Shown: positions 2,576 to 53,803 of the stretch, in pieces | Position numbering within the stretch: the first letter of the stretch is position 1 | Layout of the letters: each line of letters begins with the position of its first letter | Assembly: GCA_964016885.1 (NCBI GenBank) | Contig: OZ024763.1 | Location: 9,548,001 to 9,612,000 of the forward strand | Reading direction: 5' to 3' | Origin: Eledone cirrhosa | Lineage: Eukaryota | Length of the DNA stretch: 64,000 bases | Made by a program: the position numbers and the translations under genes | Notes under the pieces: model-generated | The model's input: only the letters and a program-made list of their open reading frames with translations | What the model was told of the DNA's origin: nothing | The model's database searches: none

Positions 2576-2734
2576 TTTCACACACATATATATATAAGCA
2601 GAAGGAATATTCAATTTGTTGGTAATTCAACAAATATAAATGTTTATAACTGATTCAGAGCACTCGACAAGTTTTCTGGAGTATAATATTCAATGATATT
2701 AAATAAATGGAAACTATATTTATAAAACCATATT

Positions 2735-2795
2735 TATTCTATTATATATATTTCAAGGGTTCCAAAATTTTGGTACGCTATCATCAGATAAAATA
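2735..2795 (-). ncRNA. Type I hammerhead ribozyme motif
   Basis: Minus strand: tattttat CTGATGA [stem II] GAA ATATATAT A atagaata. Confidence 0.75.
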
Positions 2796-2984
2796 CGAAG
2801 TGTGTTTTATAAATTTTTGACATAACCAAGGAAAATATACCTTAACGGTTCAAGTTTTCCTTGACTATCCATGGAAAACTTGAACCGTTAAGGTATGTTT
2901 TCCTTGGTTATGTCAAAATTTATAAATACACTTCGTATTTTATCTGATGATAGATACCAAAATGTTAGTACCCTTGAAATATAT

Positions 2985-4094
2985 CATCATCATCATCATC
3001 AACGTTTAACGTCCGTGTTCCACGCTTGCATAGGTTTGGACGGGGGTAGTCCCGCTTGAGGCAAGAGTGATTGTCTTGCTCGCATAGGACTGTCTGGCAG
3101 GTTTTCTACAGTTGGATGCCCTTCCTAACACCAACCACATTTACAGTGTGGGTCTGGGAGGTTTTTACCGTGTTGCCTACACGGCCACATTACAGCGTGG
3201 ACTGTGTGTTTTTTTGTCGTGACACCTACACGATCTCATTTGTTTCGGCCTGGATGGCGCGGCACCACATAACTTTACATAGAACGGGGTGGTGTGGATG
3301 GGGTGGGGGTGGGACGGGGTGTAGTTTGTTAGAGATGCCTACTGGCTGTAGTAGGTTTTACTATGTATTTAGGTAAGGCGGGTCTTCTCTGTTACTGAGT
3401 ACCGCCAAAGGTCTCGGTCCATTGACAATTGTCTTGGAGAGGTGTAAGTGTGTGAGGTCGGAGTTTATCAGCTCGTCCCAGGTTTTTCTAGGTCTGCCTA
3501 TTCCGTGGCTACCGTCTATCTTTATTGCCCTGCACTTTGTTATACAGCTATCGACTTTCATGCGCATCACGTGTCCATACCAACGTAGCCTTCTCTCGAG
3601 TAAACAACATCTGATCCCTCTTATTTCTAATTTTTTCCTTAGTTCGTTTATGCTTTGCCGTTCACGTATATTACTGTTACACATCCAGCGGAGCATGCAA
3701 GCTTCGTTCCTCTCTAGTCTGCGTATATCCTCTGCACACAATGCCCAGGTCTCACTGCCATGCAACATTGCTGTTCGTATGCAGGCATCATACAACCTGC
3801 CTTTCATTTTTAGGGAGAACCCTTTAGCAGCTAATAGTGGTATAAGCTCTCTGAACTTTTTCCAACCAGTTCTGACTCTAGCTACTGTACTTTCAGAGCA
3901 CCCTCCCCAACTGCTGATTTTATCGCCCAGGTAACGGAAGCTGTCCACTATTTCTATAGAACCCTCTGCGCAATTGAAAGAGCTAGTATTTTGTGGGCAC
4001 TTGCTGCTACTTATTGCACCAGAGCACCGGCCACATGTAAAATCTATGTTCTTAGTTAGCTTACCTGTGATCCCACTACATCTTTTATGCACCC
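2985..4094 (-). mobile_element. RTE-clade LINE (subfamily A), 5'-truncated
   Basis: ORF 3361-4092 with VDSFRYLG, LHGSETW, RRLRWYGHVMRM, GRPRKTW; (GAT)n tail at 2985-3000. Confidence 0.92.
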
Positions 4095-4170
4095 ATAATA
4101 GAATAAATATGGTTTTATAAATATAGTTTCCATTTATTTAATATCATTGCATATATATATATATATATAT

Positions 4171-5471
4171 CTCAATGACTGAACTAGAGAAGAAATTCCA
4201 AACATGGAAGCATGGCCTAGAATCAAAAGGCCTTAAAGTTAACTTGTCTAAGACTAAAGTTCTAGTTTGTAGGAAGGAAAATAGGGCACCGGTCCCATCT
4301 GGGAAATGGCCATGCTCAGTGTGTAGGAAAGGAGTAGGCAGAAACTCCATTTTATGTCCCAAATGCAAAGTATGGGTGCATAAAAGATGTAGTGGGATCA
4401 CAGGTAAGCTAACTAAGAATATAGATTTTATATGTGGCCGGTGCGCTGGTGCAATAAGTAGCAGCAAGTGCCCACAGAATACTAGCTCATTCCATTGCAC
4501 AGATGGTTCTATAGAAATAGTGGACAGCTTCCGTTACCTGGGTGACAAAATCAGCAGTGGGGGAGGGTACTCTGAAAGTACAGTAGCTAGAGTCAGAACG
4601 GGATGGAAAAAGTTCAGAGAGCTTATAACACTATTGGCCGCTAAAGGGTTCTCTCTAAAAATGAAAGGCAGGCTGTATGATGCATGTATACGAACAGCAA
4701 TGTTACATGGCAGTGAGACCTGGGATTGTGTGCAGAGGATATACGCAGACTGGAGAGATACGAAGCTTGCATGCTCCGCTGGATGTATAATAGTAATATA
4801 CGTGAACGGCAAAGCATAAACAAACTAAGGGAGAAATTAGGAATAAGAGGGATCAGATGTTGTTTACTCGAGAGAAGACTACGTTGGTATGGTCACGTGA
4901 TGCGCATGAAAGACGACAGCTGTATAAAAAAGTGCAGGGCGATAAAAATAGACGGTAGCCACGGAGTAGGCAGACCCAGAAAAACCTGGAACGACTTGAT
5001 AAATTCCGACCTCACACACTTACACCTCTCCAAGACAATGTCACTGGACCGAGATCTTTGGCGCTACACAGTCATACAGAAGACCTGCCTTGGCTAAGTA
5101 CAAAGCGAAACCTACAGTCAGTAGGCACCTCTAACAAAATACTACCCCCACCCCATCCACACCACCCCCTTAAATGTGAAGTTATGTTGGTACCACAACA
5201 TCCAGTCCGAAACAAATGAGGTCGTGTAGGTGTCACGACAAAAAAAAAAACACACAGTCCACGCTGTAATGTGGCCGTGTAGGTAACACGGTAAAAACCT
5301 CCCAGTCCACACTGTAAATGTGGTTGGTGTTAGGAAGGGCATCCAGCCGTAGAAAACCCGCCAGACAGTCCTATACGAGCAGGACACGCAATCTTGCCTT
5401 AAGTGGGAAAACTCCTGTCCAAACCCATGCAAGCGTGGAAGATGGACGTTAAACGATGATGATGATGATGA
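4171..5471 (+). mobile_element. RTE-clade LINE (subfamily A), 5'-truncated, frameshifted
   Basis: ORFs 4175-4819 and 4726-5097: GLKVNLSKTKV, PHD-like CSVC..CPKC..HKRC..CGRC, RWYGHVMRM; (GAT)n tail followed by (TA)n. Confidence 0.93.
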
Positions 5472-5626
5472 TATATATATATATATATATATAGTACACT
5501 ATAAGCCTACACCCCTTCACCAGATGGGCATAAGTAGTCTTAATAATCACCACTTGAGGGCGGCCTCATGTCTCTGATTTTCAGCCCCATGGATTTTGTC
5601 TATTATATTCCTTTGTTGTATTTCGA

Positions 5627-5684
5627 ATACCTGATGATGTCACCGGATTCATACTGAACCCGGTCATTGAAATGACCATAGTAT
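5627..5684 (+). ncRNA. Type I hammerhead ribozyme motif in a short (TA)n-flanked insert (~5493-5735)
   Basis: atac CTGATGA [accgg/ccggt + ttca/tgaa stem II] GAA ATGACCAT A gtat. Confidence 0.75.
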
Positions 5685-5816
5685 AATAAACCTTTAAAAG
5701 AATTACACCAGTCCAGCCTCCTGTTATTTTATAATATATATATATATCCAGCGAACCTCAACCCGTGAGGTTGTCTTTATGCGGGTATGTCAATATTTAT
5801 TTATAAAACAAATTTG

Positions 5817-5882
5817 TATTTCATCTGATGAGAGTGCACCATAATTTGCCTTGGTTGCCCTTGAAATATATATAATAAAATA
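5817..5882 (+). ncRNA. Type I hammerhead ribozyme motif in insert ~5748-5925
   Basis: tatttcat CTGATGA ... GAA ATATATAT A ataaaata; downstream sequence matches the 2595-4150 family. Confidence 0.7.
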
Positions 5883-6267
5883 ATTATGGTTTTATAAATA
5901 TAGTTTCCATTTATTAATATATTGTATATATATATATATATTTGTACTGTCTCTCTATTTTTTGTTCCTGTCTAATATTTAACTATATATATTTATCACA
6001 GAAAAAAAGAGAATCAGTGTTGCGACAAATGGAATTTATTGGACATATTACAATCGTTTCTCTGGCGATCAGCTCGAGACACGATCGAAGTGATGATCGA
6101 ACCTGACTCTGAAAATCGCAAGGTCCTCAGATACGTATTGATTCTACGAAGCAGATTTTCCTTCTCTTTTTTTTCTGTGATATCATACTCTGCTCTATGA
6201 GAGCATCGAGTGCTCAAACGACCTACCGCAAACAGACACTTTAAGCATCCAATACCAATTATATATA

Positions 6268-7815
6268 TAATAATAATGATAATAATAATAATAATAATGA
6301 AAATATTGTGTTCAGTGCTCAGGTGCACTACAACTCATAGAAAGTGTATAGTACATAGGGTAATGTACAAACGTCAGGAAAATGAACAGAGCATGAGTCA
6401 TGATATATACATGTGTGCATGTGTATGGAAGGGGTACATCAGGTGTAGTTTTGGCAAATTTCGTGAAGCATGAGGGTTTTAAAGGATGCAGTGTCTCGGC
6501 AGCTAACAACTGACACAGGCAGTTGGTTCCATGCTTCAGCAACTCTAAGAGTGAAAAAATGTTTCCGAAAGTCATGGGAGCTGTGTTGTTTTCTGACTTT
6601 GTAGGCATGTCCACGTGTGTTAGACACATGGAGATCAAAAAGGTGCTCAGGGTTGTTGTTGGCGAGATGGTTAATAACTTTGTGGGTGTTTACCAAGTCC
6701 ATTGCCAGATGTCGGAGTATCAATGAATCCATGCCCAGGGAAGCAAGGCATTCAGAGTATGGTAGGTGTCTGATGGAGGGTATGCGCTTGGTTGCACGTC
6801 TCTGAACAGTTTCCAGGAGGTCAATGTTCTGAGCAAGATAGGGGTTCCAGACTGATGATGCGAATTCCAAGTGTGGTCGTACCATAGCTGTATACAGCTT
6901 TAAATAGATGGCTGGAGAGCGGCTAACAAAGGTCTTGCTGAGTGATGCCAAGATACCCTCGGCCTTCTTGACAATCTTAGAGATGTGCTTTGTCCAACGC
7001 AAATCGCTGCTGACAGTAATGCCCAGGTCTCGTTCACAAGAGGACTTCTTGATATCAGTGTTGTGGAGGGAGTATGTGGACACTGGGTTTTTCCTCCCAA
7101 AATGCATGGTGGTACACTTGTCCACAGCCAGCTTCGGTTGCCAGTCTGTGATCCATTGCTGCTTTGTGTCCAGGTCTGATTGTAGGAAAGAGTTGTAGAT
7201 TTCAGGATCAGTCCTTTTGATTTCAAGGTACAGCTTGATGTCATCTGCATATTTCAGTACCATGGTATTCTTTAAGTTGGCATCTATGTCATTAATATAT
7301 GCCACAAACAAAAGGGGACCAAGAACAGATTCCTGTGGTACACCAGATGACATCTCATATGGTGAAGAATGCTGTCCTAGAACCGTGTCTACCTCTTTTC
7401 GGCTGAGAATGAAGGATTTCAACCAGATAAAAAGATCATCCCTCACACCCATTGCAGAGAGTTTCGCCATAAGTCTTTTGTGTGGCACAGAATTAAAAGC
7501 CTTAGCAAAGTCAAGGTAAACAACATCCACCCATGAGCCACTGTCAGTGATCCGGGTAATGTCTTCAAGGAACTCGATAGGCTGATCACAGCAGCTGGAG
7601 TTAGGGATAAATCCAAATTGCGAGGGCCAGATGAGGCTGTGAGAGCTCCTGAAGTTCCAAAGTGTTTCTCTGACACAGGATTCCATCAGTTTGCCAATAC
7701 AGCTAGTAAGACTGACTGGACGATAGTTGACAGGTGATGTGCGGTCGCCCTTTTTGAACAGAGTAATGACACTGGCAGTTTTCCACTGCTCCAGAGTAGC
7801 ACCGTTGTTGAGACA
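6268..7815 (-). mobile_element. CR1-clade LINE, 5'-truncated, long open RT frame
   Basis: ORF 6439-7686 (415 aa): YLDFAKAF, SGVPQESVLGPLLF, KYADD, RPHLEFAS, TRGH..K..RKHFFTLRV..WNQLP; upstream NYRPVSLTS; (TTA)n tail at 6268-6300. Confidence 0.93.
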
Positions 7816-8057
7816 GTATATGTATATATATATGGAAAAGAATGAAATGAAATTTCATTTCTCACTCTTAGTACGGCTGATACTTAAATGTAAGTATATA
7901 TACATACATACATATATGTATACAGACGTACATACATATATGTATGTACGTCTGTATATGTATACATATATGTATGTACGTCTGTCAACATATATGATAT
8001 GTTGATTTAAAACTTCACCATTCACAAGTGTTTTTTAAGCTTCATATCATGTATCCC

Positions 8058-8125
8058 TATTTTATCTGATGAAAATGCAGATATCATCCCATGATATTTG
8101 TTTTTGAAATGCGCATAATAAAATA
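8058..8125 (+). ncRNA. Type I hammerhead ribozyme motif in insert ~7995-8165
   Basis: 8-bp stem I tattttat/ataaaata, CTGATGA, long stem II gcagatatca/tgatatttgt, GAA, perfect palindrome ATGCGCAT, AUA cleavage triplet. Confidence 0.82.
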
Positions 8126-8429
8126 CTTGGAACTCTTTTAACCATCTTTTGATCTTATATTATATATATATATATATAGATATATATATTAGAATATGTG
8201 TTTAAAATGCCGTAGTATCTAAAACATTTAAACATTAACTAAATGAGCTCTCTGGACTGGTGGGTAAAGTGTAGAAAAGTGTCAGTGAGTTTGAAGTTTC
8301 AGTTTTGTCGCTTCATCTAGATAGAGTGTGCATGTTTATACGTGTGTGTATGTTTGATAGTAACAAAAATCTTGATAAAATAAGTACCAAACTTGAAAAA
8401 ATTATACATAACAGGTGGGGTGGGGGTGC

Positions 8430-8630
8430 CCCAGCTTAATCACAGTCTAATAACTGAAACCAGTTAAACAAATAAGACAGTGTCCAGCATGGCCACAGTC
8501 TAATGACTGAAACTAATAAATGAGCAAGTGTTAAAGCAGTACCCCAGCATTGCCACAATTTAATGACAGGAACCACTAAATAAGTGTCAAAGCTGTGCTC
8601 CAGCATGGCCTCAGTCTAATGATTGAAAAG
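8430..8630 (+). repeat. Four diverged ~55-bp tandem units (cagcatggccacagtctaatgactgaaac), probably an amplified SINE tail
   Basis: Motif recurs at ~8432, 8486, 8546 and 8601. Confidence 0.6.
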
Positions 8631-10729: not shown

Positions 10730-10862
10730 ATCGACCTGATGTTCCGAATAAGGGGAAACAATTGTTCTCAGTAATAGTGAACTGTTGTGGAACTACTTCT
10801 ACCAAACTTGTCCCAAGTGCTCTACTACTACGGGTATAACCCACCAGTGTGCTACAACTATA
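10730..10862 (+). mobile_element. PLE terminal-repeat fragment with degenerate hammerhead (same family as 35636-35770)
   Basis: CTGATGT...GAAACAATTGTTCTC followed by the same downstream sequence as 35670-35770. Confidence 0.7.
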
Positions 10863-22702: not shown

Positions 22703-22774
22703 TCCAAAGTGGTCTAGTGGTTAGGATTCCTCACTCTCACTGCGGCTGCCGGGTTTCGATTCCCCACTTGGGAA
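22703..22774 (+). pseudogene. tRNA-Glu(CTC) pseudogene
   Basis: 72 nt, TCCAAAGTGGTCTAGTGGTTAGGATT...CTCTCAC...TTCGATTCCC...GGGAA; mismatches in the acceptor, anticodon and T stems. Confidence 0.8.
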
Positions 22775-22980: not shown

Positions 22981-23705
22981 TATATCAACTAGAAATTGAT
23001 TAACATATAAATAGACATATGAAACAATCACAGGGGATAATTTGTAAAAGTGTGTAAGCACACATAGCTAGGTAGGTAACTAAATAAAGTTTAACTAGAA
23101 CTTCAAAAATAGATACCTTATAATTTGATTAATCTTCCTCGTATATATTCCATTAAAGAAATATATTTCACCAATTAATCGATCGGTAAACGACAGAAGC
23201 CAGATCCTGGATTTTCATCAAGGAAGAGGTCCAACCATCTGTGTTTACGCATCAAGTTCAAATCAGCGACTGGCCAGTAACACTTGCTGTATCCACTAAA
23301 AATACACACATCATACCAGCTTCGTCCCAGTCGCTGATTTGAACTTGATGTGTAAACACAGATGGTTGGACCTCTTCCTTGTTGAAAATCCAGGATCTGG
23401 CTTCTGTCGTTTACCAATTGATTAATTGGTGAAATATATTTCTTTAATGGAATATATACGAGGAAGATTAATCAAATTATAAGGTATCTATTTTTGAAGT
23501 TCTAGTTAAACTTTATTTAGTTACCTACCTAGCTATGTGTGCTTACACACTCTTACAAATTATCCCCTGTGATTGTTTCATATGTCTATTTATATGTCAA
23601 TCAATTTCTAGTTGATATAAAATGCTCGAATCTACTCATTAGAATCTTGGAGCATATTTTACGGGTGATATGGCGCATGTCTATCTGGCATGACACCCTT
23701 AATTT
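22981..23705. mobile_element. PLE-type inverted-arm insert: ~293-bp arms (22981-23273 / 23327-23619) plus a tail on the right arm
   Basis: Near-perfect inverted repeat; the tail starts with an ATGCTC...GAGCAT hairpin; TTGATGA...GAAATATATTTC hammerhead-like relic. Confidence 0.75.
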
Positions 23706-23753
23706 AATTTGATTTAATTTAATTTAATTCAATTTATCTTAATTTTGGATATT

Positions 23754-24835: not shown

Positions 24836-25015
24836 TATATAGAAAAGCTTCTACAGGACTAGAACTGTTTCATTTGTGAGAAATCATGATGATTTCTTAT
24901 GAATGAAACAGTTCTAGTCCTGTAGAAGCTTTTCTATATTAAAACATTTATACTGTGCTATGTATTGAGTACCTTACTTACTGTGGTTACCCCCGATTGA
25001 ACCCGGAATAACTTA
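24836..25015 (+). mobile_element. Fold-back PLE-type insert truncated inside the hammerhead core
   Basis: Palindrome 24836-24939; right arm TGATGA tttcttatgaat GAAAC agttcta GTC; tail with tact...gagta hairpin. Confidence 0.7.
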
Positions 25016-25039: not shown

Positions 25040-25345
25040 CATAAACAATGAGTTATATGGTTTGTTGATTATCATTCAACATCAACAAAGTTAATTTTAT
25101 AACAGATTTGAAGCACTCTACAAGATTTATCTGGAGTACAATATTAATAAATGGAAAATATCTTTATAATACTATTAACGATTAACGAGCTTATACTATA
25201 AAGTCTACGCTAAGATATGTCAATATCTTAACACCAAATATTCTATTCTATCTGATGAACGCACACTAAAATGTTGTGTCTTTGAAATACGTATAATAAA
25301 ATAAATATGGTATTATAAAGATATTTCCCATGTATTAATATTGTT
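25040..25345. mobile_element. PLE-type insert with inverted, tail-bearing arm
   Basis: 25138-25172 is the reverse complement of 25310-25344; hammerhead at 25244-25303. Confidence 0.8.
25244..25303 (+). ncRNA. Type I hammerhead ribozyme motif
   Basis: tattctat CTGATGA ... GAA ATACGTAT A ataaaata (perfect palindrome in helix III). Confidence 0.75.
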
Positions 25346-27849: not shown

Positions 27850-28984
27850 TCATTATATATATATAAAATTCTTTGTCCCTCTGTCTGTCTTTTCCTTATG
27901 GCTTGACCAAATCAAATCAAATTAGACCCCAGGATTAACAACATGTAATTCTTATTTTCATTTGGATTAAAACAATACATTTTATCTAAAATAATCTACT
28001 ATAGTCAACTCTAAGGAAACAACATTTTATAACACGACGACGACGTCGCGTTTTGTATCTGAGCGTGTGTGTTTGTGAGTGTGCGTGAGTGTGTGTGTTT
28101 GTGAGTGTGTATGTGTTTGTGAGTGTGTGTGTTTGTGAGTGTGTGTGTTTGTGAGTCTGTGTGTTTGTGCGTTCGTTACACCTTAGTAAGTTACATACAT
28201 ACACATCTCCACGTAAATACATAATCTGATACAGAGAATTAAACATACAGATATCTACACATACATATACATATGTGATGACTGACAAGTATATGTGTGT
28301 GTGAGTATACATACATTTCTTTGATGACTGACATAATGAAACGCTGTATGAATGTATGTCTGTGTGTGTTATTTATAAGTGTATGTTTGTGTGAATGTAA
28401 GTGTGTCTGTTTATATTTATATTCTCATACTGTTAAATTAGCAGTTAATATATTTGCTTATATTTGGTTAATTTTCACTGCATACAAAAATAGAGATTAA
28501 TACATGTTTCTTTTGGATGTTGATACTTATTTGTTTACAATATTGAAAAAAAATGTCTTTATTCCCCAAATTTCTCTCATACCTACAACTGTTACATTTG
28601 AATTTAAGAGGCTTCAGTCTCCAGTCAACCTAACTTTTGTTATTTCAATTAACAACTCTCAGGGTCAATCCCTCAAGGTAGTTGGACTTGATCACTCTAC
28701 TACATGTTTCTCCCACGGTCAACTCTATATTGATTGCTCAGCAACAATTTATTAATTTGGACACCAACAAAATATTACACAATGAATATTATTTACCCTG
28801 AAGTGCTTCAAGTTTGACAGATTTTCATTTCTAAATTCTATTATCATTACAATTTTGATATTTAAAAAAAATAAAATATAGCTATTTTGAAATAATTATG
28901 AGGAAAAAAATATCTTCATATTTATTGTTTACTAATCTGAAAAAGAACAGCAGTAACCCGGGTAATGCCGGGTCGTTCAGCTAG
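27850..28984 (+). mobile_element. Helitron derivative with Pif1-like helicase C-terminal fragment
   Basis: 28504-28755 FIPQISLIP..FEFKRLQSPV...INNSQGQSL.VVGLD....FSHGQLY; 3' hairpin acccggg..ccgggt then CTAG|T. Confidence 0.88.
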
Positions 28985-34030: not shown

Positions 34031-34187
34031 TTACTGAGGGATGTATTCTTTACACAGGACATGAACAAATGTCACCCCTTGTGTGCATATGTGTGTGTGT
34101 GTGGTGTATATATATACACACACTCACATATGCACACAAGGGGTGACATTTGTTCATGTCCTGTGTAAAGAATACATTCCTCAGTAA
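34031..34187. repeat. Palindrome with ~77-bp arms centred on (TG)n(TA)n(CA)n
   Basis: ttactgagg...tgtgtgcatatg / catatgcacaca...cctcagtaa. Confidence 0.9.
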
Positions 34188-35172: not shown

Positions 35173-35277
35173 GAATGTGTGTGTATATATATATATATGT
35201 TTGTATGTATATGTATGGGGATAGATATGTGCATGTGGGTGTGTATACACACATATATGTGTGTATCATCATCATCA

Positions 35278-35766
35278 TCATGGAAAGGCATCACTAAGTC
35301 CAAGCCATACGCAAGGGGTAATCCATCTTGTGGACTATGTATTGATGAACGAATAAATATTCTAAAGAGATTACGCAATAGCGATTGCCTAAACTGAAGG
35401 AATGAATTCTTCACACGTTGTCCACACGTCTGGAAACACCTCTTACATAACTACAAAGCTCCGGATTGAATTACAACATCCTAATTTTCATATCAACTAG
35501 AAACTTTCGGACTTTCGCAGTTATCTCCCTTACGCCTCTTGCACGCAATTTAGTATTGCCTGAGTGAAGTGACTGTTTCTGCACATGTGCGTTCATACGG
35601 GTGTCCTTCCTGTTCTGTATAACCATGTCCATTATGAGCTGAGGATCTGCTAAGGTGAAACAATTGTTCTCGGTTGGTGAACTAACTGTTGTGTAACCAC
35701 TTCTACCTAACTCGTCCCATAGACTGAGTGCTCTACCACTACGGATATTACCTTCCAGTGTTCTAC

Positions 35767-35770
<4 letters not shown>
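35278..35770 (+). mobile_element. Penelope-like element (Naiad-like) 3' end: GIY-YIG C-terminus, hammerhead and tail
   Basis: WKGITKSKPY...CGLCIDERINI...LN*RNEFFTRCPH.WKHLL, then gag CTGAGGA..GAAACAATTGTT ctc (35636-35671); ends in (TA)n. Confidence 0.8.
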
Positions 35771-35816
<46 letters not shown>

Positions 35817-35908
35817 TATTTTGCAATTAATTAAAAGCATTTTGAAGACCTTACGCTATTGTTTTAAAGTAGTGACTATGTCACTTACTTCTTTTTTCAA
35901 CAAACAAA

Positions 35909-36298
35909 GGCACATGGCTTAGTGGTTAGAGCATTGGCCTTGCAATCGAAAGGTTGTGAGTTCAATTCTCAGACCGGGCGATGTGTTGTTTCTTTGAGCA
36001 AGACACTTTATTTCACATTGCTCTAGTTTACTCAGCTGCAGAAATGAGATGATGGGGACTGGGGTCCCTATCATTCCACTGCAAAGTGGTCGTGGAGGTG
36101 CCACGGCAAAAAAGCACCCAGCCCACACTGTAAAGTGGACGTGTAGGCACCACGGAAAAAAAGGACCCAGCACTCACTGTAAATGACGTTGGTGTCAGGA
36201 AGGGCATCCAGCTGTAGAAATCAAGCCAGAATCAGTTCCCGTCCTACCCTTGCAAGCGGGGAAAAGAGGACGTAAAACTGATGATGATGATGATGATG
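35909..36298 (+). mobile_element. Full-length tRNA-derived CORE-type SINE with RTE-derived tail
   Basis: A box TGGCTTAGTGG, B box GAGTTCAATTC, CORE-like ttgagcaagacactt, RTE-like 3' end + (GAT)n; interrupts the hammerhead repeat at caaag|ggag. Confidence 0.88.
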
Positions 36299-36307
36299 AA
36301 AGGGAGA

Positions 36308-36355
36308 TAAGCTGACAGATCTCCGTTTCATACTGTTGGTATTCCTCAGAGCTTA
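36308..36355 (-). ncRNA. Type I hammerhead ribozyme motif
   Basis: taagct CTGAGGA ataccaacagtat GAAAC ggagatct GTC agctta. Confidence 0.8.
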
Positions 36356-36449
36356 GCACTCCCCTTGTTTCTGGAAAATTATTAATGTTGGATTCTTATA
36401 GAATTCCAGTAATAATCAGGAACTAATCAGGAAATAATAAGGGGAGTAC

Positions 36450-36495
36450 TAAGCTCTGAGGAATACCAACAATATGAAACAGATCTGTCAGGTTA
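36450..36495 (+). ncRNA. Type I hammerhead ribozyme motif
   Basis: taagct CTGAGGA ataccaacaatat GAAAC agatct GTC aggtta. Confidence 0.72.
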
Positions 36496-36765
36496 TCTCC
36501 CTTTGTTTGTTGAAAAAAGAGGTAAGTAACATAGTCACTACTTTAAAACAATAGCGTAAGGTCTTCAAAATGCTTTTAATTAAGCATACAGTGTATTGCA
36601 AAATACACTGTATATACATTCATATATATATCGCTATTTCAGAGCACCAATTCTAATTTTCAATTTTTGCTGGACCAGCAACCGCTCTGTATAATCAGTT
36701 CCTGATTATTACTGGAATTCTATAAGAATCCAACATTCATAATTTTCAACAAACAAGGGGAGTGC

Positions 36766-36813
36766 TAAGCTCTGAGGAATACTAACAGTATGAAACAGCG
36801 ATCTGTCAGCTTA
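36766..36813 (+). ncRNA. Type I hammerhead ribozyme, apparently intact; predicted cleavage after 36807
   Basis: Stem I taagct/agctta (6 bp), CTGAGGA, stem II atact/agtat (5 bp), GAA, stem III acag/ctgt (4 bp), GUC triplet. Confidence 0.88.
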
Positions 36814-36929
36814 TCTCCCTTTATTTGTTGAAAAAAGAAGTAAGTCACTACTTTAAAACAATAGCGTAAGGTCGTGAAAATAAGCTATAAAATATATTTA
36901 ATCAACAGCCACGAAATTTAGCACATAAA

Positions 36930-37150
<221 letters not shown>

Positions 37151-37340
37151 CAATATGTGTAAGTCAAACATTTTATTGGCTGTGATCTCATCAGGCAGTA
37201 AGAATTAATGTAGAAAAAACATGCTGATTCCAGTTCCTTTGAGGACTAACAACACACCCAGGAGTGGACATATTGATGAATTAACAGGGTAGAACACATT
37301 ACAACACCATGTTTACCTGTTTTTTCTACATTAATGCTTA

Positions 37341-37393
37341 CTGCCTGATGAGGTCACAGCCAATAATGGCTGTCACTGAAATATATATAGCAG
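37341..37393 (+). ncRNA. Type I hammerhead ribozyme motif in an inverted-arm insert (~37173-37420)
   Basis: ctgc CTGATGA [acagcca/tggctgt] GAA ATATATAT A gcag; 37173-37221 is the reverse complement of 37318-37365. Confidence 0.82.
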
Positions 37394-37523
37394 AGAATTA
37401 GAATAAACAAAGCTAACTTTAACATGTTTGACATACATAGAGTAAACAAACCAGCCTGCGTTCTTCGTTGAGTATTCCAACTTGCATACTGAGGTGTCGG
37501 TAAACAACCAACACATGCTCAAA

Positions 37524-37593
<70 letters not shown>

Positions 37594-39262: not shown

Positions 39263-39718
39263 ATATATATATAAGTATATATATACAAATGGAAGTACAG
39301 CATAATCGAGGCTCGAGCCGCAGCTAAGCCAACGAATGCAATCAGAAAGTGCAGCCAAGCACTCGATAAGGTATAAAACCTTAGAGTAATAACATTAGGT
39401 TTAAAGGGCTTTGCAAATTGAAGATAGCGACCGGTAATTCAGCCGCGGGGACCGTAGCAACGAAAGAACTGACTCGCAAGAAAAAATACATACACATATA
39501 TATATATGACAGTATATATAATTATATATATATATATAAACAAGGGCATTAATGGAAAAATTATACTTCTTTCATAAAAAACTACATTTATTCCCTTCCA
39601 TATGTTTCAAAAGAAATGTGGCCTCCAATCATTCGAAATTTGGTAAAATGTTTTTCTTATAGTCGTGACCATCAATAAATTTAGATATATGTAGCTATAT
39701 AGTCATGTCTATATATAG

Positions 39719-39850: not shown

Positions 39851-41676
39851 ATCATCATCATCATCATCATCATTCTACGTCCGCTCTTCCCTGCTTGCAA
39901 GGGTGTGACGTGTCTTATTCAACACAGCATCTCTCCATTTGTCACGGTCCTTCGTCATCTCCTCCATGAGATTTAGTGATCTGAGGTCTGTTCTCACCAC
40001 CTCCGCCCATGTTTATCGTGGTCTACCTCTACCACGTCTTCCTTCAACTGGCATTTCCTCGCACTTCTTCACCCATCGGTCATCCTCCATGCGCATCACA
40101 TGTCCATACCACTTCAGTCTCCTCTCTCGCACACTACATTCTATCCCTCTCAGACACAGTTTCTCTCTCAACACATTCATGCTGGGTCGTTCACGCACAT
40201 TGACACTGCACATCCAACGGAGCATGCTTGCTTCATTTCTCTCTAGCCATCGCATATCCTCTGCAGTTGCTGCCCATGTCTCACTACCATGCAGTATCGC
40301 GCTCCTCACACAGGCATCATATAACCGGCCTTTCGTATGCAAGGAGAAACCGTTCTTCGTCAGTAGAGGAAGCAGCTCCCTAAACTTCTTCCAACCCGTC
40401 CTTATTCTAGATACTATGGCCTCGGAACACCCCCCTTCGATGCTAATCTGATCTCCTCTATAGCACCCGCCTGCATTTGAAAAATGTGTCTATCAATGCG
40501 ACTTCTACTGTTTAATTTCCCTGTACATCTACTGCATATATATTTCTCCCTACCTGTTAGTTTGCCTGCTATTCCGCTACATCTCTTGTGTACCCAGGAT
40601 CTGCATTGTGTGCATTTTATAGAATTTATGCCAGTTCCTTTTCTACATATCAAACATGGCCATTTCCCTGACGGAATCAGAGTTTTGTCCTCTTTTCTAC
40701 TCATCAACACTTTTGTCTTAGCTAGGTTCACTCTCAGTCCTCTTGATTCCAACTGCTGTTTCCATAGCCAGAATTTATTCTCTAGCTCCTCTACTGATTC
40801 TGCTATAAGAACCAGATCGTCAGCATAGAGGAGTTCCCATGGGAAGCCAGTCTTAAACTCCTCTGTTATGGCTTGGAGGACTATAATGAACAAAAGTGGG
40901 CTGAGGACCGAACCTTGATGTACTCCTACTTGTATCTGGAATTCCTCACTAAACTCCATTCCTACCCCGTCTTTACTGACAGTACCTCTGTACAAAGTTT
41001 GCACTGTCCTCACAAGCCATTCCTCAACACCTAGTTTCCTTAGGGACCACCAGATGACAGATCGGGGTACCCTATCAAAGGCCTTCTCTAGGTCAACAAA
41101 GGCTAAGTATAGTGGCTTCTCTAAGAACCTCTCTTGTAGTTGTCTCACTAAAAAGAGGGCATCTGTTGTACTTTTCTCAGGCACAAAACCAAACTGCATC
41201 TCATCTAATTTGACCCTTTCTCTAATTAGTTGTGCTAATATCCTTTCTGCCACTTTCATAACCTGATCCACCAGTTTTATACCCCTATAATTCCTCCTCT
41301 CCAGAGCATCCCCTTTACCTTTGTAGCAATTTATGAGAATACTGCTGCACCAGTTTTTGGGTATGACACCACCATATATAGCCTGATTGATGATGCGTGC
41401 AACCAGTTTAGTGCCTACGACCCCTGATGCCTTCAGCATCTCAGCAACTATCCCCGATGGTTCAGCAGCCTTACCATTTTTCATTTCCTTAATCACCTCT
41501 TCGACCCTATATTCGTCAATCTCAATAGCTGTTCCCTCTGTCGGATCTACTGAGGGTAATTTCTCTCTCTCCCATTCATTCTCCAAATTCATCAGTCTCT
41601 CATAATGGCATTTCCAGGCCTCTTTTTTCTGATCATTCGTGACACTAAGTACACCGGCATCATTCCGGACACATTT

Positions 41677-41678
<2 letters not shown>
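39851..41678 (-). mobile_element. RTE-clade LINE (subfamily B), longest copy
   Basis: ORF 40414-41592: NYRGIKL, QFGF, FVDLEKAFDRV, GVHQGSVLSPLLF, LLYADD, PHD finger; (GAT)n tail. Confidence 0.95.
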
Positions 41679-41717
<39 letters not shown>

Positions 41718-43124
41718 CTATATAGCCATGTTTATAAATAGGTGTATATATATATATATATAGCTATATAGCCATGTTTATAAATAGGTGTATATATATA
41801 GCCATGTCCACCTATAAAGTTAGATATATTCTCCTCGGAGAGATAGATAGTCTGTGGTGAATTTTGTCACTGAAATATCGAGATTACATTTAGGTGAGAT
41901 GTATATAAATCATCCGTCTTAAGTACAGAGTTTGTTTCGATAGAAAAACATTTTTTTAGAGTTTTGTATTTTTCCTGTTGTTTGTATGTTGTCATCTTAC
42001 TAGCAGAGGAATGTCCTGAAAGTGTTTGTTGTTGTAGTATAGTTTCTATGTAAACAAGAGCAACAAAGAGTACAGGATGTTTCATACTCTTGCCCTTTAA
42101 GAGTGGTAAAACAACCATACCACCTACATAGATTTTAAACAAAAACAAACCAAAGCAACAACAACAAAAAGATTGTGGCATAATTAAGGTGTTGTTAAAG
42201 CCATTAATTAATGATGAATATTAAAGGAAAATAACAACAAAAATTAAACAAACAAAAAATGTTGTTTGTCTAGAATTGAGTGATGAGAGTAAAAATAAAT
42301 GGCAGGAAAAACAAATGCTAGAGACGGATATGGTGCTGGATAATTTTAGATTACTTGAAATAATTAACCCTTTCATCACTATATTTCATCATTATCAGTT
42401 TACATCTGTTTCTTCAGTTGTGTCAAGGGCACAACAATCTCCTTAATACTGGTGTCATGATAAAATGTACCTAGTATACTATGTAATATGGTTGGTGTTA
42501 GGAAGGGTATCCTCCCATATAAAACCATGCCAAAGAAAGGGTTAAGAGGGCTCTTCAGTTGTGTCATTGGCACAACAACTTCCATAGTGCTGGTGCCATG
42601 ACACCCAGTACACTCTATAAATTGCAGGAATATATTTAAGCAAGATATGAGCCTCGTAGCCTATCTGTGAGGACAGAAGCTTTGGTGAAGCTCCAACATG
42701 GTGTGTCAGGACCTGTCCAAATCCTGCTAGTTTTTACTTTTTCAAAATAATAGAAAATAAGATAAGATAGAATAAACTAAAACCCATTTCCGGCTGCATG
42801 TTATAACCCATAAATATTTAATATTTTCCAACAATTTGCAAATATTTTTGGTTGATAAAATCCATGCCTACTCGTTAATATAAAACAGGTTTCCGATCTA
42901 TAATTAATATATAAATGATCTATATATTATTTCATAACTATTTGTTCAATTTATAAGTAGCTTCATGGCTGTATTAATTTCAATAATGTTGTCAGTAAAT
43001 GTGCATGATTAATTTTACTGTATACTGTGTAGTGATGTGCTGCTTTATGTATCTCTCTCTCTATGTATGTATATATATATATATGAAAATATCTGTACAC
43101 ACACACAGACGCATATATATATAT

Positions 43125-43700
43125 ATACAGGGGTTCTGTCAATAAAGTGAGAGTAGGAATGGAGTTTATTGAGGAATTTCAGATAGAAATAGGTGTACAT
43201 CAGGGTTCGGTCCTCAGCCCACTCTTGTTCATTATAGTCCTCCAGGCCATAACAGAGGAATTTAAGACTGGATGCTCATAGGAACTTCTTTATGCTGATG
43301 ATCTGGTTCTTATAGCAGAATCAGTAGAGGAACTAGAGAATAAATTCTGGCTCTGGAAACAGCAGTTGGAATCAAGAGGACTGAGAGTGAACCTAGCTAA
43401 GACAAAAGTGTTGATGAGTAGAAAAGAGGACAAAACTCTGCTTCCATCAGGGAAATGGCCATGTTCGATATGTAAGAAAGGAACTGGCATAAATTCCATA
43501 AAATGTACACAATGCAGATCTTGGGTACACAAGAGATGAAGTGGGATAGCAGGCAAACTAACAGGTAGGGAGAAATATGTATGCAGTAGATGTACAGGGA
43601 AAGTTGGCTGTAGAAATCACAGTGGTAGACATTTTTCCAATGCAGGTGGGTTCTATAGAAGTGGTTGATAGCTTCCGGTACCTAGGTGATCAGATTAACA
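43125..43700 (+). mobile_element. RTE subfamily B internal fragment
   Basis: GVHQGSVLSPLLF, LLYADD, PHD region; both ends abut (TA)n. Confidence 0.88.
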
Positions 43701-43784: not shown

Positions 43785-43837
43785 TATATAATTATATATA
43801 TATATAAGTATATAATTATATATATATATAATGCCAG

Positions 43838-43983
43838 TGACATGTACAGGTACTTAAGGTTCATTGGGTTATTCACCCCAACCCATTCAGTCTGTCATAC
43901 AATTAAAAAGATGTTTAATTGTATGACAGACTGAATGAGTTGGATTGAATAACCCAATGAACGTTAAGAAGCTGTATATGTCA
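43838..43983. repeat. Diverged palindrome, ~70-bp arms, next to (TA)n
   Basis: ...ttcagtctgtcatacaattaaa / tttaattgtatgacagactgaa... Confidence 0.85.
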
Positions 43984-44032
43984 GTGCTGTAACTATACTT
44001 AACTTGTCCTATGAACTGAGTTTTTATTTATA

Positions 44033-46864: not shown

Positions 46865-46980
46865 AACCACACCTGATGAAATCATCTAAGTCTTGCATCA
46901 TCATCGGATGATGAAACTAGGTTTTCACAACATTAAAACTTTAGAATTTCCAGTCAGGCTTTCCGTTATTTTTATATGAA
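46865..46980 (+). ncRNA. Degenerate hammerhead (family of 5627-5684)
   Basis: CTGATGA aatcatct..ggatgat GAAAC tag GTT; downstream ccagtcaggctttccgttattttta resembles 5708-5732; stem I does not pair. Confidence 0.45.
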
Positions 46981-47111
46981 TACTTAATTCGGTTCCTACA
47001 CTAGCCACTAGTTCCTACGATGGATGATTTGCATGATATCGAGTGCTTTAATTTATCACATCATGGTTTACTAACCAGTTCTACCCATTGGTAAACCACA
47101 CAACATAAATG

Positions 47112-47155
<44 letters not shown>

Positions 47156-47157
<2 letters not shown>

Positions 47158-47408
47158 AAAGTTATATTTAAATTGTTGGGTTACAACTAGTAAATATTTA
47201 TAACTGATATAAAAGCACTCGACAAATATTTGGAGTATATTTACAATATTAAATAAATGCAAGTAGATGTTGTTACGGTATGTCGAATCTATTTATCTAT
47301 AAAACTGTTTATATTGTATTTTGTCTGAGGAAGGCATAGCATATTGTTAATATGATATCCCTGAAATATATATAATGAAATATAGTTTCCATTTATTTAA
47401 TATTGTAT
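47156..47408. mobile_element. PLE-type insert with hammerhead (47317-47382, +) and inverted tail-bearing arm
   Basis: tattttgt CTGAGGA .. GAA ATATATAT A atgaaata; tacaatattaaataaatg / catttatttaatattgta inverted pair. Confidence 0.78.
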
Positions 47409-47439
47409 ATATATATATATATATATTAATATATATAAT

Positions 47440-47655
47440 AGTAATAATAATAAATGTGAAGACTAAAATCCAAAGAGTGCTCGATAAGGATAAATATATA
47501 TCAAATATATAAGAACCATAGAGCAAATATTTATTAAAATAACAGATTAAAGTTTAAGCAAAAAAAAAATCGCTGCTTTCACCCTTAATGGGATCTTCTG
47601 AAGGGTGAAAGCAGTGATCCTTTGCTTAAACTTTAATCTGTTATTTTAATAAATA
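47440..47655. mobile_element. PLE-type inverted-arm insert (second copy at 56365-56570)
   Basis: 47528-47586 is inverted at 47601-47654; tail hairpin tgctc...gagca; core reads CAGAAGA tccc..aggg t GAAA. Confidence 0.65.
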
Positions 47656-48850: not shown

Positions 48851-49182
48851 ATCATCATCATCATTTTACGTCCGCTTTTCCCTGCTTGCAGGGGTGGGAC
48901 GGGAACTGATTCTGGCTTGATTTCTACAGCTGGATGCCCTTCCTAACACCAACCTCATTTACAGTGAGTGCTGGGTGCTTTTTTGCCGTGACACCTCCAC
49001 GACCACTTTGCAGTGGAATGATAGGGACCCCAGTCCCTATCATCTCATTTCTACAGCTGAGTAAACTGGAGCAATGTGAAATAAAGTGTCTTGCTCAAGG
49101 AAACAACACATCACTCGGTCTGAGAATTGAACTCACAACCTTTCGATTGCAAGGCCAATGCTCTAACCACTAAGCCATGTGT
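48851..49182 (-). mobile_element. Full-length CORE-type SINE
   Basis: Reverse complement of 35909-36298, lacking one subrepeat. Confidence 0.88.
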
Positions 49183-49197
49183 CTCCATGTATGTACA

Positions 49198-49363
49198 CAG
49201 TGAAATCCCGTTGTAACAAAATTCACGGGGTATAAAAAATTCTTTATAATGAGATTGACTGAAACAAATTGAGCATTTGTTTATTATCTATGGGGATTGA
49301 AAAAAATTTCGTTATACTGAAAAATTCGTTATAATGGTATTCATTATAACGGAATTTTACCTG
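49198..49363. mobile_element. Tc1/mariner-pogo-type MITE
   Basis: Imperfect TIRs CAGTGAAATCCCGTTGTAAC / TTATAACGGAATTTTACCTG, TA on the right flank. Confidence 0.6.
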
Positions 49364-50063: not shown

Positions 50064-50172
50064 TATTTTCTGATATGAGGGAAATGTTTTTGCGCTATAT
50101 ATTAATGGACTGATTAATTAATTCATTTGACTGGTACTGCATCTATCCTTATTGAAACGATTGTAGAAATAT
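50064..50172 (+). ncRNA. Degenerate hammerhead
   Basis: tttt CTGAT(--) atgagg...ccttatt GAAAC gatt GTA gaaa; appears to lack two core nucleotides. Confidence 0.4.
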
Positions 50173-50244
50173 ATGATTGTAATTGAATAACTACGTCGGT
50201 ATTCCTTCTGCATTGCTTATATATAAATAAATATATATATATTA

Positions 50245-51000
50245 ACCTAATAATCCTGGCCATCCTAATGTTTCTGCCTGTAACTGCTCCACCAAAATCA
50301 TCTCACGATACCTCAATACCCTCCTCGCCCCCATAGTCACCAACCTCCCCACCCACATCCATGACACTAATCATGCCCTTAGACTTTTCAACTCCTTCTC
50401 CTTCTCTCCTGGCCCCTCTCACCTTCTCTTCACCCTTGACATTACCTCTCTCTATACCATCATCTCTCACAATGATGGCTGCCACTTTTTATACCTATAC
50501 CCTACCCCTTACCCTAGCACTTCCACTCTTCTCTGTTTTGCTGATGGGTTTTCCTTTAATGGAGGATTTTATCAGCAAGTCTCTGGGGTAGCCGTGGGAA
50601 CCAGTATGGATCCGAACTATGGCAGCTTGTTTGTTGGCTATGTTGAGTACCAGATCTTTTACCATTACACTGGATCTACATTGACGACTGTATCGGCACC
50701 ACCACTCTCTCCCTTGAACAGCTCGACTGCTTTCTCTGTTATATTCAGTCTTTTCATCCCACTCCTACCTTCCCCACCTCTGTCTCCGATTCTTCTGTCC
50801 AATTTCTCAACATCTTTTTCTCTCTATTGATCACACTCACCACACCCTCTCTACTTCCATCTTCTACAAACCCACTGACTCCCACTCCTACCTCAACTTC
50901 ACTTCCTCCCACCTCACTCCCAATTTTTCCTGTTGGCTCTGCAGCCATGACCATGTTTTTGACATCCAGTTTCAACACATGGCTTCTCGCTTCATCCAGT
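50245..51000 (+). mobile_element. Penelope-like reverse transcriptase fragment, decayed
   Basis: NNPGHPNVS, FTLDITSLYT.I.HNDG, QVSGVAVGTSMDPNY.SLFVGYVE, YIDDC, FYKPTDSHSYLNFTSSH. Confidence 0.85.
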
Positions 51001-51082
51001 TAAACTAATATATTTCTTCCATACATGGAAGAAATATATTAGTTTAACGCTTGAAATACACACACATACATATATATGTTTT

Positions 51083-51301
51083 GGTACTTCTTTCGAAATG
51101 CTCTTTTTCCTTTTTGTTGTTGTTGATTTTTTTTGTTTATCTCGCCCATATTGAAAAACTCACACAGACATATATACACATATATATATGTATATATGTC
51201 TGTGTGTGTGTGCATGTGTGATTTTCAATATGGGCAAGATAAACAAAAAAAATCAACAACAACAAAAAAAAGGAAAAAGAGACCATTTCGAAAGAAGTAC
51301 C
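51083..51301. repeat. Palindrome with ~75-bp arms around a (CA)/(TA)/(TG) core
   Basis: ggtacttctttcgaaatg...cccatattgaaaa / ttttcaatatggg...catttcgaaagaagtacc. Confidence 0.9.
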
Positions 51302-52179
51302 TTCCGATATTTTTTCACGTATGAGCTACATACACTTGCTCCCATGCGACTCAAATTGCTTAGAAATGCAGTGAACCAGTAATCATTTTAGCATGGGGGA
51401 TCCTGTAATCTACGACACTTTGTACACTAATTGTATTATAAAACTAACCGAGGCATAACTTTAAATCCGTGTCCCTCACTGCTACCGACTTTGTTTCCTC
51501 ATGATTTAATAATTGTTTCTACTTTTGGCACAAGGCCAGCAATTACCCAGTGCATTACTGGTACTTTATTTTATCGACCCCGTAAGGATGAAAGGCAAAG
51601 TAAACCTTAATGTATAATTTGTAATACGATTTTACGGAGATATATTTTCTACGATAAAGATGACGATTATACTGACAAAATTTTAAAATATTTTTTTTTT
51701 TGTGGAAATTATTATTTTATTTTTCGTAACTCATCATTGTAGAATTGATATTACCGTTCCAGCTGCATTAACAAATCCCCCAGTTTATGTTTAACCTACT
51801 ACAGACACAAATCGAAAGTATTCAGTAAATAATGGAAGTATTTAAAAAGAAATTCCCTCTCTTTTTCAAAGATTTGTCCACTTTAAAAATGTCATTAAAA
51901 TACACTTTACCCGAAAGCTTAGGGCCTCGACCATGGGTTAATATGACCCCAAAACCAATGAAAGGGTGACCGAATCCTTTGGTGATTAAATTATTCCTAC
52001 ATAAGCCTTAATACAATGTCGAGTGACAAATTATTATTATAATTATTTCCATATTAATTTAACAATCTCTGCAGGTAAATTCTGAGGTAAACCCACGTCG
52101 ACATTTAATCTTCTTCTTTTATTCCCCCACATATTCCTGAGAGAGTTGTGGGGGCAGAGTCCTCAAACACTCCCTCCCA

Positions 52180-52390
52180 TTCTGATAGTCGGAAGCTTGT
52201 GAGTATCCTGACTCCCACCTGTGCAGTCATTTCTGGCACCACACCTGAATAGTGAAATTTCCATCTTCCATCCAAAGCTACAGTGTCAAAGCCACGGAAC
52301 TTTGTTGAGGAAACCCGACTATATCTAGCTGGTAGCATCTAGCCTCCTCCACTAGTTCCTGCTTACCTGTAAGAGTTCAAAATGTTATCT
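52180..52390 (-). mobile_element. RTE-type AP-endonuclease N-terminal fragment
   Basis: QELVEEARCYQLDIVG.SSTK.RG..TV.LDGRWKFHYSGV....AQVGV. Confidence 0.7.
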
Positions 52391-53519
52391 TTTACAACTG
52401 TAGCAGAGCTACTTGTTTGGCGTGTATCAATAATCTATCCAGGCATGATTTGGCTAAAGTCAAACAAATCGTAAGCCGAGTATGGATATATATCAACTTC
52501 AGCCATCTCAAAGGTTTTCCTGCTTCTTTGGTAAAAACTAGCCTCTTGCTGCTTTGGACTATGAAAGGTAAACACGCTATTATGTAATGGTGAGATTTTC
52601 ACTTTGGCCTGTCGTTCTCCTTAGACCAGGCCTTCGTACTTCTTGGTTCTTAATTTTGTTTGTATCTTTTTGAATGGCATGCCTGCTTAACTTTTGTAAT
52701 CAGTTGTAAATAAAACTTGTAAAAATATTATCGGGTGTTATAATGTTTTTACTCACCTGATCAATGAAACAATTGTTAATACTGTAAATAAAACCCTTTT
52801 TATACAGCCGACCGTGTTATTCTTCACTCTTTCACTACTATATATATATATATTTAATACAATAACAGAGATAGTTTAAAGCTAAACTCTGACTGGTAAC
52901 CATCTCACTCAACAAACATTAGGTTATATTAAAATATAGACCCAATTTAAGTGTTTGGGGTGCTAACAATATGTATAATGTGGAAAAACCAGTTGTATTA
53001 TTTTATGAGATATAATTAAAGTTAAAGTATATCTCTCTTTCCAAACAATTGTTTCATTAAAGTTTTCTACAAGTTTGGGAGAATGTTTCCAGTTTATGTA
53101 GAAGCCTAATATATATTCATGTAAGAATATATTTAGGTGGGCACTTATAAATCATCAGTGGAAGCCCATTAAACATTGATATAAGAAAACAATTTCTTAC
53201 CGCTGTCAAAATCATGTCCATAAAGTTGGTCTCTCTCACCTCGAATGACCGCCAAATTTGAAATTCCAGCAGTTTTTGACTGAGGAAGTATCATAGCGAC
53301 ACGAAGCGGGAAGGGGAGACAACCCACGAAATGAGGAAAAAAAATAATATACACGCGGGTTAATTAGTTTTTTTGAAAACATTATCAATCCAACGTGTTT
53401 AAGAACTCAATTGAAAATAAAAAAATAAATATATGCTTGTATAAATTACACACGCATATAGATATTTTCTTAGGCTAAATCAGAATATATATATATGTGT
53501 GTGTGTGTGTGTGTATGTG

Positions 53520-53803
53520 TAGATGGTGAGTAATATTGTAGAACAATAAAACTATGCATATATCAGATAAGTAGCACTCAAAGTTGGTAGAACTGGAGTA
53601 TATATAATAAAGAAGAAATTAAAATATGTAGACTTAGCTCTTTCCTGTAAACAAGTGCTATTATGCCTCATATCATTGTACCTTATTTTATCTGATGAGA
53701 ACACAATTTTTGTCCCAGGATGATTTTGTATTTGAAATACGCATAATAAAATATATGGAACTCTTTTAACCATCTTTTAATTTCTTCTTTATTATATATA
53801 TAT
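53520..53803. mobile_element. PLE-type insert with hammerhead (53684-53753, +) and inverted tail-bearing arm
   Basis: tattttat CTGATGA .. GAA ATACGCAT A ataaaata; same family as 8058; tatataataaagaagaaattaaaa is inverted at 53775-53800. Confidence 0.8.

Follow-up and report, generated by a model that had tools for sequence, protein, structure and literature searches.

Among Penelope-like elements (PLEs), the Hydra clade is recognized in the relevant passages of Craig et al. (2021; PMC8557442) by an endonuclease (EN) motif of CxxC plus CxH and by (TA)n targeting, and the origin of the PLE tail and of the inverted ends is treated there as an open question. For Poseidon PAc of Anolis carolinensis, the corresponding parts of Frangieh et al. 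(2024; PMC11167929) report that reverse transcriptase (RT) starts internally in vitro at two sites with the tail between them, that genomic ends match these starts, that cleavage and extension occur on both strands of the target, and that in vitro the hammerhead need not cut; the RNA needed was narrowed there to the first 172 nt of the open reading frame (ORF), with one protein. A circular or multimeric template has been proposed by Cervera and de la Pena in the passages of their work that bear on it.

Here we analyzed a 64,000-nt stretch of Eledone cirrhosa (GCA_964016885.1, contig OZ024763.1, positions 9,548,001 to 9,612,000, forward strand; hereafter the window), which is AT-rich (37% GC) and dense in (TA)n runs and in pieces of RTE-type long interspersed nuclear elements (LINEs). 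By their sequence features, a series of inserts in it (designated by letters) are truncated PLE ends. An earlier note, made from the letters alone, had listed nine hairpins at their tails, all of which are present, and had read them as a cross-family element that defines the template boundary. In outside relatives this hairpin proved to be one of a tandem pair between hammerhead ribozyme and ORF, with element ends just 5' of either hairpin, and each hairpin is probably an RNA docking site that positions the RT start. The clade and the outline of the mechanism are known; a conserved RNA motif that predicts both ends is apparently undescribed.

A twin hairpin between hammerhead and ORF

The relatives were reached from insert H, whose coding part (35275..35469, + strand) is the C-terminal tip of a Hydra-clade GIY-YIG endonuclease with one in-frame stop. 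It retains 61 codons with CxxC, E, N and CxH, and this 61-residue tip matched 94 proteins in a full scan, one of them an RT-EN protein of 658 residues. A profile built from 48 relatives matched back at 35275-35454 (E 2.7e-13), and found neither another match in the window nor the RT part or intact 5' end of a Hydra-clade element there; no other insert had a detectable ORF remnant. Because of the CxxC/E/N/CxH tip and the profile match, insert H is, on its sequence, a Hydra-clade end. The alignment consensus of the relatives carries RWK, ADKT and CNCRxKxxC, many of their contigs are ~2.5 kb long, and no relative was found in viral contigs.

With the protein profile, 78 loci were retrieved from metagenomes (the best 80 of 497 confirmed having been kept) and 15 from genome bins. 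With L093 left out (22% identity), the outside set comprised 92 loci chosen on the protein alone, which form 70 families at <80% nucleotide identity. L079-L092 are Hydra-clade PLEs with (TA)n flanks in contigs filed as bacterial genome bins; most likely these contigs are animal host DNA in bacterial bins.

Twenty-one outside loci had a hammerhead before the ORF, and strict hairpins (as defined below) were found there twice in 17 loci, once in three and not at all in one; at L080, which has one strict hairpin, the other copy is a compensatory GCAC/GUGC variant. The background in ORF interiors was 29 strict hairpins in 174,659 nt. Hairpin 1 started 33-57 nt past the predicted hammerhead cut and hairpin 2 another 55-83 nt on, ahead of the ORF, so that the element reads: hammerhead cut, 33-57 nt, UA-rich foot, hairpin 1, UA-rich foot, hairpin 2, ORF. 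Among 40 downstream hammerhead copies, hairpin 1 was kept in 25, and most of the other 15 become TA-rich 30-55 nt past the cut. Published Hydra consensi from coral, sea cucumber and copepod, as far as their sequences were covered, carry the motif after the hammerhead (Hydra-2_Amil and Hydra-2_Ajap; Hydra-1_Crog with one mismatch), and the Hydra-1_Ajap consensus has it twice at its very start.

The hairpin is a bulged stem of ~25 nt, RCUC-Y...R-UH-GAGY-RCU. The loose YRCTC...GAGYR pattern that had been offered as the signal was near chance by itself, with 25 matches in the window against a mean of 15.3 and a maximum of 26 in 50 shuffles. On the other hand, a strict descriptor derived from the outside loci gave six window matches against 0.07 expected, all at insert tails (A, B, C, E, I and J). 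With one deviation allowed there were ten matches against 2.3, the additions being K, E2, a decayed site at 46998 and a match at 28694 that belongs to no insert. Point changes are present in hairpins D and G and a 1-nt bulge in H, and F is a poor match to the descriptor, lacking both the Y-R pair and the UH bulge. The hairpins of J (6187-6211), K (56694) and E2 (56536) and the decayed site 46998 come in addition to the nine already listed.

Features that had not been selected for were then scored on hairpins chosen solely by the outer stem of 4 bp and the CU that follows; this gave 94 distinct hairpins, in which 51 of the 70 families were represented. The inner pair was Watson-Crick in 92 of 94 (65 C-G, 27 U-A; permutation mean 54, maximum 70), the two-base bulge opened with U in all 94, and a U stood five bases past the stem in 59 of 60. 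Mapped onto a quick protein tree of 37 rows, the inner pair required six double switches between C-G and U-A, five of them forced by strong branches, and it was unlike between hairpin 1 and hairpin 2 in nine of 17 elements. These pair counts come from anchored scripts and are not R-scape statistics, as MAFFT misaligned hairpins with variable loops. At upper pairs 2 and 3, G-U exceeded A-C by 6:1 and 9:4, which favours the RNA-sense strand.

Thus the hairpin is, by these comparisons, a cross-family element with real covariation, as had been proposed, and the covariation holds for part of the stem. The fifth (Y-R) pair, the outermost, is not conserved and is unpaired in the outside loci, and the T at 47478 is private to the window copy (~93% of reads carry G). 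One position further inward, the swap of A-U for G-C is truly compensatory. In most families of this genome (compared by hairpins A, B, C, D, H, I and J) the stem is ACUC/GAGU followed by GCU, and nearly all families of L001-L089 have GCUC/GAGC followed by ACU, a lineage-level compensatory swap linked with a change of the unpaired base after the stem.

Positions of the element ends

In the window, the last base shared by the short arms lay ~0-10 nt before the stem in inserts B, C, D, E, F and G, distances that are ranges, as the aligner runs into TA letters. The predicted geometry, an inverted pair whose short arm stops just 5' of a hairpin kept on the long arm, was found within a single insertion for six of the nine hairpins (25113, 47215, 53574, 47478, 23622 and 24950). 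It failed at 2660 in the insertion itself, whose + arm ends in the hammerhead (2984), the short end being seen only in a separate 83% copy (5783-5924). Inserts H and I (hairpins at 35710 and 39359) have the hairpin only, with no corresponding short arm found in the window, as the earlier note had implied. (TA)n, which had been assigned to the short arm alone, adjoins both ends of the inserts.

Outside the window, 35 ends were placed in 25 loci (at least 60 nt at 88% identity, contig ends and run-on copies removed): 28 lay within -2 to 8 nt 5' of the next hairpin and three at 9-16 nt, two rows of the count (L089 4322 and L089 +7854, one far and one near) resembling TA-run alignments. The short arm ends at a sharp, UA-rich spot immediately 5' of the hairpin, in agreement with the earlier note. 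Twelve near ends had hairpin 1 behind them and stopped within ~4 nt of hairpin 2, with L008 a thirteenth by position. Among seven outside head-to-head pairs read by eye, six joined one short and one long end. The feet had ~five times the density of UA-rich words (62 in 320 nt) found elsewhere (55 in 1,432 nt).

For family E the end point was also seen in sequencing reads of this species. Among restriction-site-associated DNA (RAD) reads aligned to 47156-47600 (depth ~6,000-7,000, duplicates possible), 2,365 and 2,526 reads of two runs departed from the family at 47527, at 2 nt from the stem, and continued as (TA)n, as did 122 contigs of a third run and three contigs under another organism label; among the loose ends listed for the two read runs (24 of 699 rows in all), 47527 was the only family E position. 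A pile of reads at 47171 was considered as an element end and rejected: it has an AATT word and mixed flanks (agreement 0.34), coincides with molecule ends and was taken as a RAD cut site. The short end of family C falls in a masked stretch (47396-47461), outside the read count.

The tail is one unit between two hairpin-marked feet. Contrary to the suggestion that the long arm begins at the RNA's true 3' end, outside elements of these families extend past the long end through hairpin 2 and into the ORF, so that it is no RNA terminus, and hairpin 2 is where 12-13 of the long ends halt. The long end is thus a second internal site, joined to (TA)n too.

Probable docking of reverse transcriptase and rival explanations

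The best reading of these sequences is that the hairpin would position the RT. Recognition by a protein is suggested because the unpaired letters are invariant. If what holds for Poseidon carries over, the feet would be where reverse transcription starts, as in the inference drawn from Frangieh 2024, and the RNA template, with the feet only 30-130 nt past the cut, would have to be either a circle or an uncut tandem. The endonuclease would nick (TA)n, the DNA 3' end would anneal to the UA letters of a foot, and copying would proceed in the 5' direction and leave the hairpin behind. Starting at foot 1 would give a short arm without hairpin, and a start at foot 2 would copy hairpin 1 and make the tail. 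In inverted inserts both target strands would be primed, one per foot, and two 5'-truncated complementary DNAs joined. Two proteins on one RNA would account for the one-short-one-long rule, which is the weakest step. It is conceivable, and we offer it tentatively, that two RT-EN molecules on the twin hairpins of one RNA prime both strands of a (TA)n cut together and so fix the one-short-one-long ends, that a rule of doubled signals sets the tail of all PLEs, and that the hairpin is a portable internal-start signal for an enzyme related to telomerase.

Several observations weigh against the docking reading: i) hairpin 2 is known from outside relatives only, the window families having no intact 5' end, so its role in them is presumed from those relatives, and several window tails (81-102 nt) are longer than the outside spacing of 55-83 nt; ii) four of the 35 outside ends lay more than 16 nt from the next hairpin, in a count that omits ends past the last known hairpin (L012 and L058 being such exceptions), and one outside pair (L082 1211/5020) consists of two short ends; iii) at upper pair 4, A-C exceeds G-U (12:5), and the strand test is weak, the stem folding on either strand (mean pairing 0.92 vs 0.89); iv) the Hydra-1_Obim and Hydra-1_Amil consensi, as far as covered, show no clear hairpin; v) many outside contigs probably share hosts, L082, L083, L088 and L089 being one assembly; and vi) primer annealing shares the credit for end choice, since the feet are the densest UA sites.

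The last point leads to a stronger form, in which ends are set solely by annealing of the (TA)n primer to UA-rich words and the hairpins are kept for another job (packaging, hammerhead folding, translation or RNA stability). The fivefold density of such words at the feet and the TA microhomology at most ends fit it. Yet 55 of the 117 UA words lie away from the feet and only four of 35 ends are found there, several foot ends (L008, L016, L046 and L054) have no (TA)n after them, and the same offset recurs at both hairpins in families that cannot be aligned; we regard annealing alone as an improbable explanation. Alternatively the hairpin may work as DNA, recognized by the GIY-YIG endonuclease in a single-stranded or tandem intermediate whose TA-rich foot is then cut, so that the ends are resolution cuts. 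Poseidon speaks against this, its genomic ends being the RT start sites seen in vitro (PMC11167929, in the passages concerned), as do the sense-strand G-U excess and the foreign (TA)n after both ends, a better fit to priming than to cutting. In its favour, the stem can fold on both strands, the relevant text of Craig 2021 (PMC8557442) ascribes the tail to EN-mediated resolution, and that of Frangieh 2024 (PMC11167929) cites the Penelope tail as needed for EN recognition. Recognition as DNA is, on balance, unlikely.

The telomerase-like template boundary of the earlier note, with its long arm begun at the true RNA 3' end, fares worse: it fails on geometry and appears highly improbable. The short end does abut the hairpin, and the RTs of PLEs and telomerases are sister groups (PMC8557442, in the part concerned). 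But the hairpin is on the wrong side for such a boundary, 3' of the start and at the back of the enzyme; long arms copy through hairpin 1 and keep it intact; and long ends halt before hairpin 2 although the same families run into the ORF.

The docking reading, if true, accounts for the odd one-sided tail left in genomes. A short, invariant, doubled and covarying motif that predicts both ends across ~50 families opens the tail question to point mutation, and offers a simple marker with which to annotate Hydra-clade ends and orient non-coding stubs. Moreover, PLE enzymes being the closest relatives of telomerase, it provides a minimal model of how RNA directs the choice of a start site, and possibly a small signal for insertion tools aimed at (TA)n.

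Inserts of the window and described systems

The view of the inserts as PLE ends was borne out by the endonuclease tip, the hammerheads and the (TA)n targets, and an inverted 5'-truncated copy with a one-sided tail was seen in B, C, D, E, F, G, J and K. Non-coding inserts are placed with the Hydra clade, provisionally, by hammerhead, hairpin and target only, and insert F is unplaced. In a pattern scan, predicted type I hammerheads lay upstream of the hairpin and in matching orientation in A, B, C, D and J; hammerhead core words occur in H and O, are decayed in G and E and half present in K, and a core-word scan found none in F nor on the - strand of I. No hammerhead was among the Rfam matches listed for the window (150 of 196), where only a tRNA-like match at 22703 was above the gathering score, and 19 loci with hairpins gave no Rfam match at that score. 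In both window copies of family E (56369; 47562-47600) the hammerhead-like core is CAGAAGA, not CUGAAGA, with no clear stem III, and this family may spread with a dead ribozyme.

Insert A has its long arm at 2597..2865 (-), with hammerhead core 2787, predicted cut near 2743, a hairpin fitting the descriptor exactly (2662..2682, -) and an 86-nt run to (TA)n at 2586-2596; its inverted arm (2870..2984, +) stops within hammerhead stem III at a junction with an RTE-LINE and gives no short end. The 83% copy related to A (5748..5924, +; hammerhead 5825-5874) has a short end where (TA)n begins a few nt before the expected hairpin start. In insert J (5994..6259), the short arm on the - strand (hammerhead 6130-6049) leaves 4 nt before the stem, and the long arm on the + strand has its exact hairpin at 6187-6211 and a tail to (TA)n at 6260. 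A copy related to D (8024-8173) has a short end identical to that of insert D, and an H-related tail (10736..10859, +) has a decayed hammerhead core and a shortened hairpin.

The inverted arms of insert F (22981..23753) are 98% identical, with a GCUC/GAGC hairpin at 23624-23653 (+). Insert G (24842..25013) has a short arm on - and a long arm on + (decayed hammerhead core 24886, mutated hairpin 24952-24971, tail to (TA)n), and insert B (25040..25344) a long arm on - with an exact hairpin (25137-25115) and a + arm (hammerhead 25252-25295) that ends in (TA)n at the hairpin foot. The non-coding end of insert H (35639..35769, +) comprises hammerhead core 35639, a variant hairpin at 35710-35729 with the 1-nt bulge and a tail to (TA)n at 35770. 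Insert I (39286..39415, -) has an exact hairpin (39387-39361) and a 102-nt run to (TA)n, and insert O (46873..47114, +) a hammerhead core at 46873, a decayed hairpin ending at 47044 and a tail to (TA)n at 47115.

Insert C (47156..47405) combines a long arm on - (exact hairpin 47236-47217) with a + arm (hammerhead 47325-47374) whose short end is in (TA)n, and insert E (47438..47655) a long arm on - (hairpin 47524-47479) with a short arm on + and the family-wide end point 47527. Insert D (53520..53792) has a long arm on - (hairpin 53599-53576, inner pair broken) and a + arm (hammerhead 53692-53745) that ends at the hairpin foot. Insert E2 of family E (56367..56566) has a short arm on +, an inverted tail with hairpin 56536-56491 and a second short end, and insert K (56580..56765) a short arm on - and a long arm on + with the 3' half of a hammerhead, a hairpin with one change (56694-56717) and a tail to (TA)n.

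Inverted pairs without such a hairpin also occur in the window (56783-57103, 37150-37527 and 35814-36890). That at 56783-57103 has a 40-nt one-sided tail and no Hydra-type hairpin, and is probably the end of another PLE clade with the classic tail of 30-40 nt. At 35814-36890 a hammerhead-bearing end is present in three copies, two with the same stop point and no hairpin tail seen, interrupted by a tRNA-headed piece of short interspersed nuclear element (SINE)/RTE. Arms ending inside the hammerhead, possibly a minor third class of ends, were seen in the window (2468-2541 and 2984) and at L033 2571 and L023 2762, only 2984 being near the predicted cut. A decayed PLE-type RT remnant (50246-51003) gave no match to the Hydra profile, and its first 145 residues none to Pfam; no hammerhead or hairpin was found near it, and no link to these inserts. 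RTE-LINE inverted pairs (~90%) lie at 2979-5478 (1.1 kb arms, flanking a central (TA)n run) and 40457-43659 (0.5 kb), smaller fold-backs surround microsatellites at 34047-34171, 7902-7981 and 43831-43990, and heads of tRNA-derived SINEs (Rfam tRNA matches, one above gathering score) lie at 22703-22774, 35915-35972 and 49120-49177.

Among described systems, the Hydra clade of Craig et al. (2021; PMC8557442) shares, in the parts concerned, the endonuclease motif, the canonical hammerhead, (TA)n targets, inverted 5'-truncated copies and the one-sided tail, and its consensi themselves contain the hairpin. The words 'hairpin' and 'stem-loop' do not occur in the main text as far as covered, which gives a tail of 30-40 bp ascribed to EN resolution; unlike that figure, the tail here is ~55-100 nt, the spacing of the two hairpins. 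Words of the motif's 3' strand gave seven matches in the covered part of the Craig supplement, four in untranslated regions (UTRs) of Hydra elements and three in Naiad/Chlamys records, the latter with no partner strand in the passage concerned, where line breaks may hide some. An assignment to Naiad/Chlamys PLEs (N-terminal EN, C-terminal RT, no canonical hammerhead) was rejected, as insert H ends in EN and then a hammerhead core; four short words of insert F had no match to the Naiad consensi in that supplement.

Poseidon PAc, from the passages concerned of PMC11167929, shares two adjacent internal starts, AT-rich targets, a requirement for RNA 3' of the start and a predicted dimer. It belongs to another clade, with another motif, and its starts fall within the ORF, in an AC-rich stem-loop that lacks homology to the target; the Hydra-clade sites, in contrast, lie in the 5' UTR, in UA-rich feet that match (TA)n, with a repeated, covarying motif on their 3' side. 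By eye, the part of the PAc template given there has a GGC..GCC unit followed by an AC-rich stretch twice, ~41 nt apart, near the stated tail length, a repeat that draws no remark in the passages concerned. The minimal type I hammerheads of PLEs and of retrozymes without long terminal repeats (non-LTR retrozymes; PMC4209133; PMC7229834; bioRxiv 10.64898/2026.07.22.740005) likewise lie in a pseudo-LTR, with no downstream hairpin described in the passages concerned. The window inserts are truncated ends, unlike the tandem arrays of retrozymes. No description of a twin hairpin was found in searches of the open literature or Rfam (subscription papers and Repbase notes being outside the scope).

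Small stem-loops beside an RT start are known from the telomerase boundary, hepadnaviral epsilon (bulged too) and the 3' stem-loops of LINEs. In telomerase the boundary element is located 5' of the template, where it brings copying to a halt; it and the LINE stem-loops are 5' of the start, and epsilon templates in its own bulge and primes from protein. The hairpin described here lies 3' of the start, stays uncopied at site 1 and is doubled.

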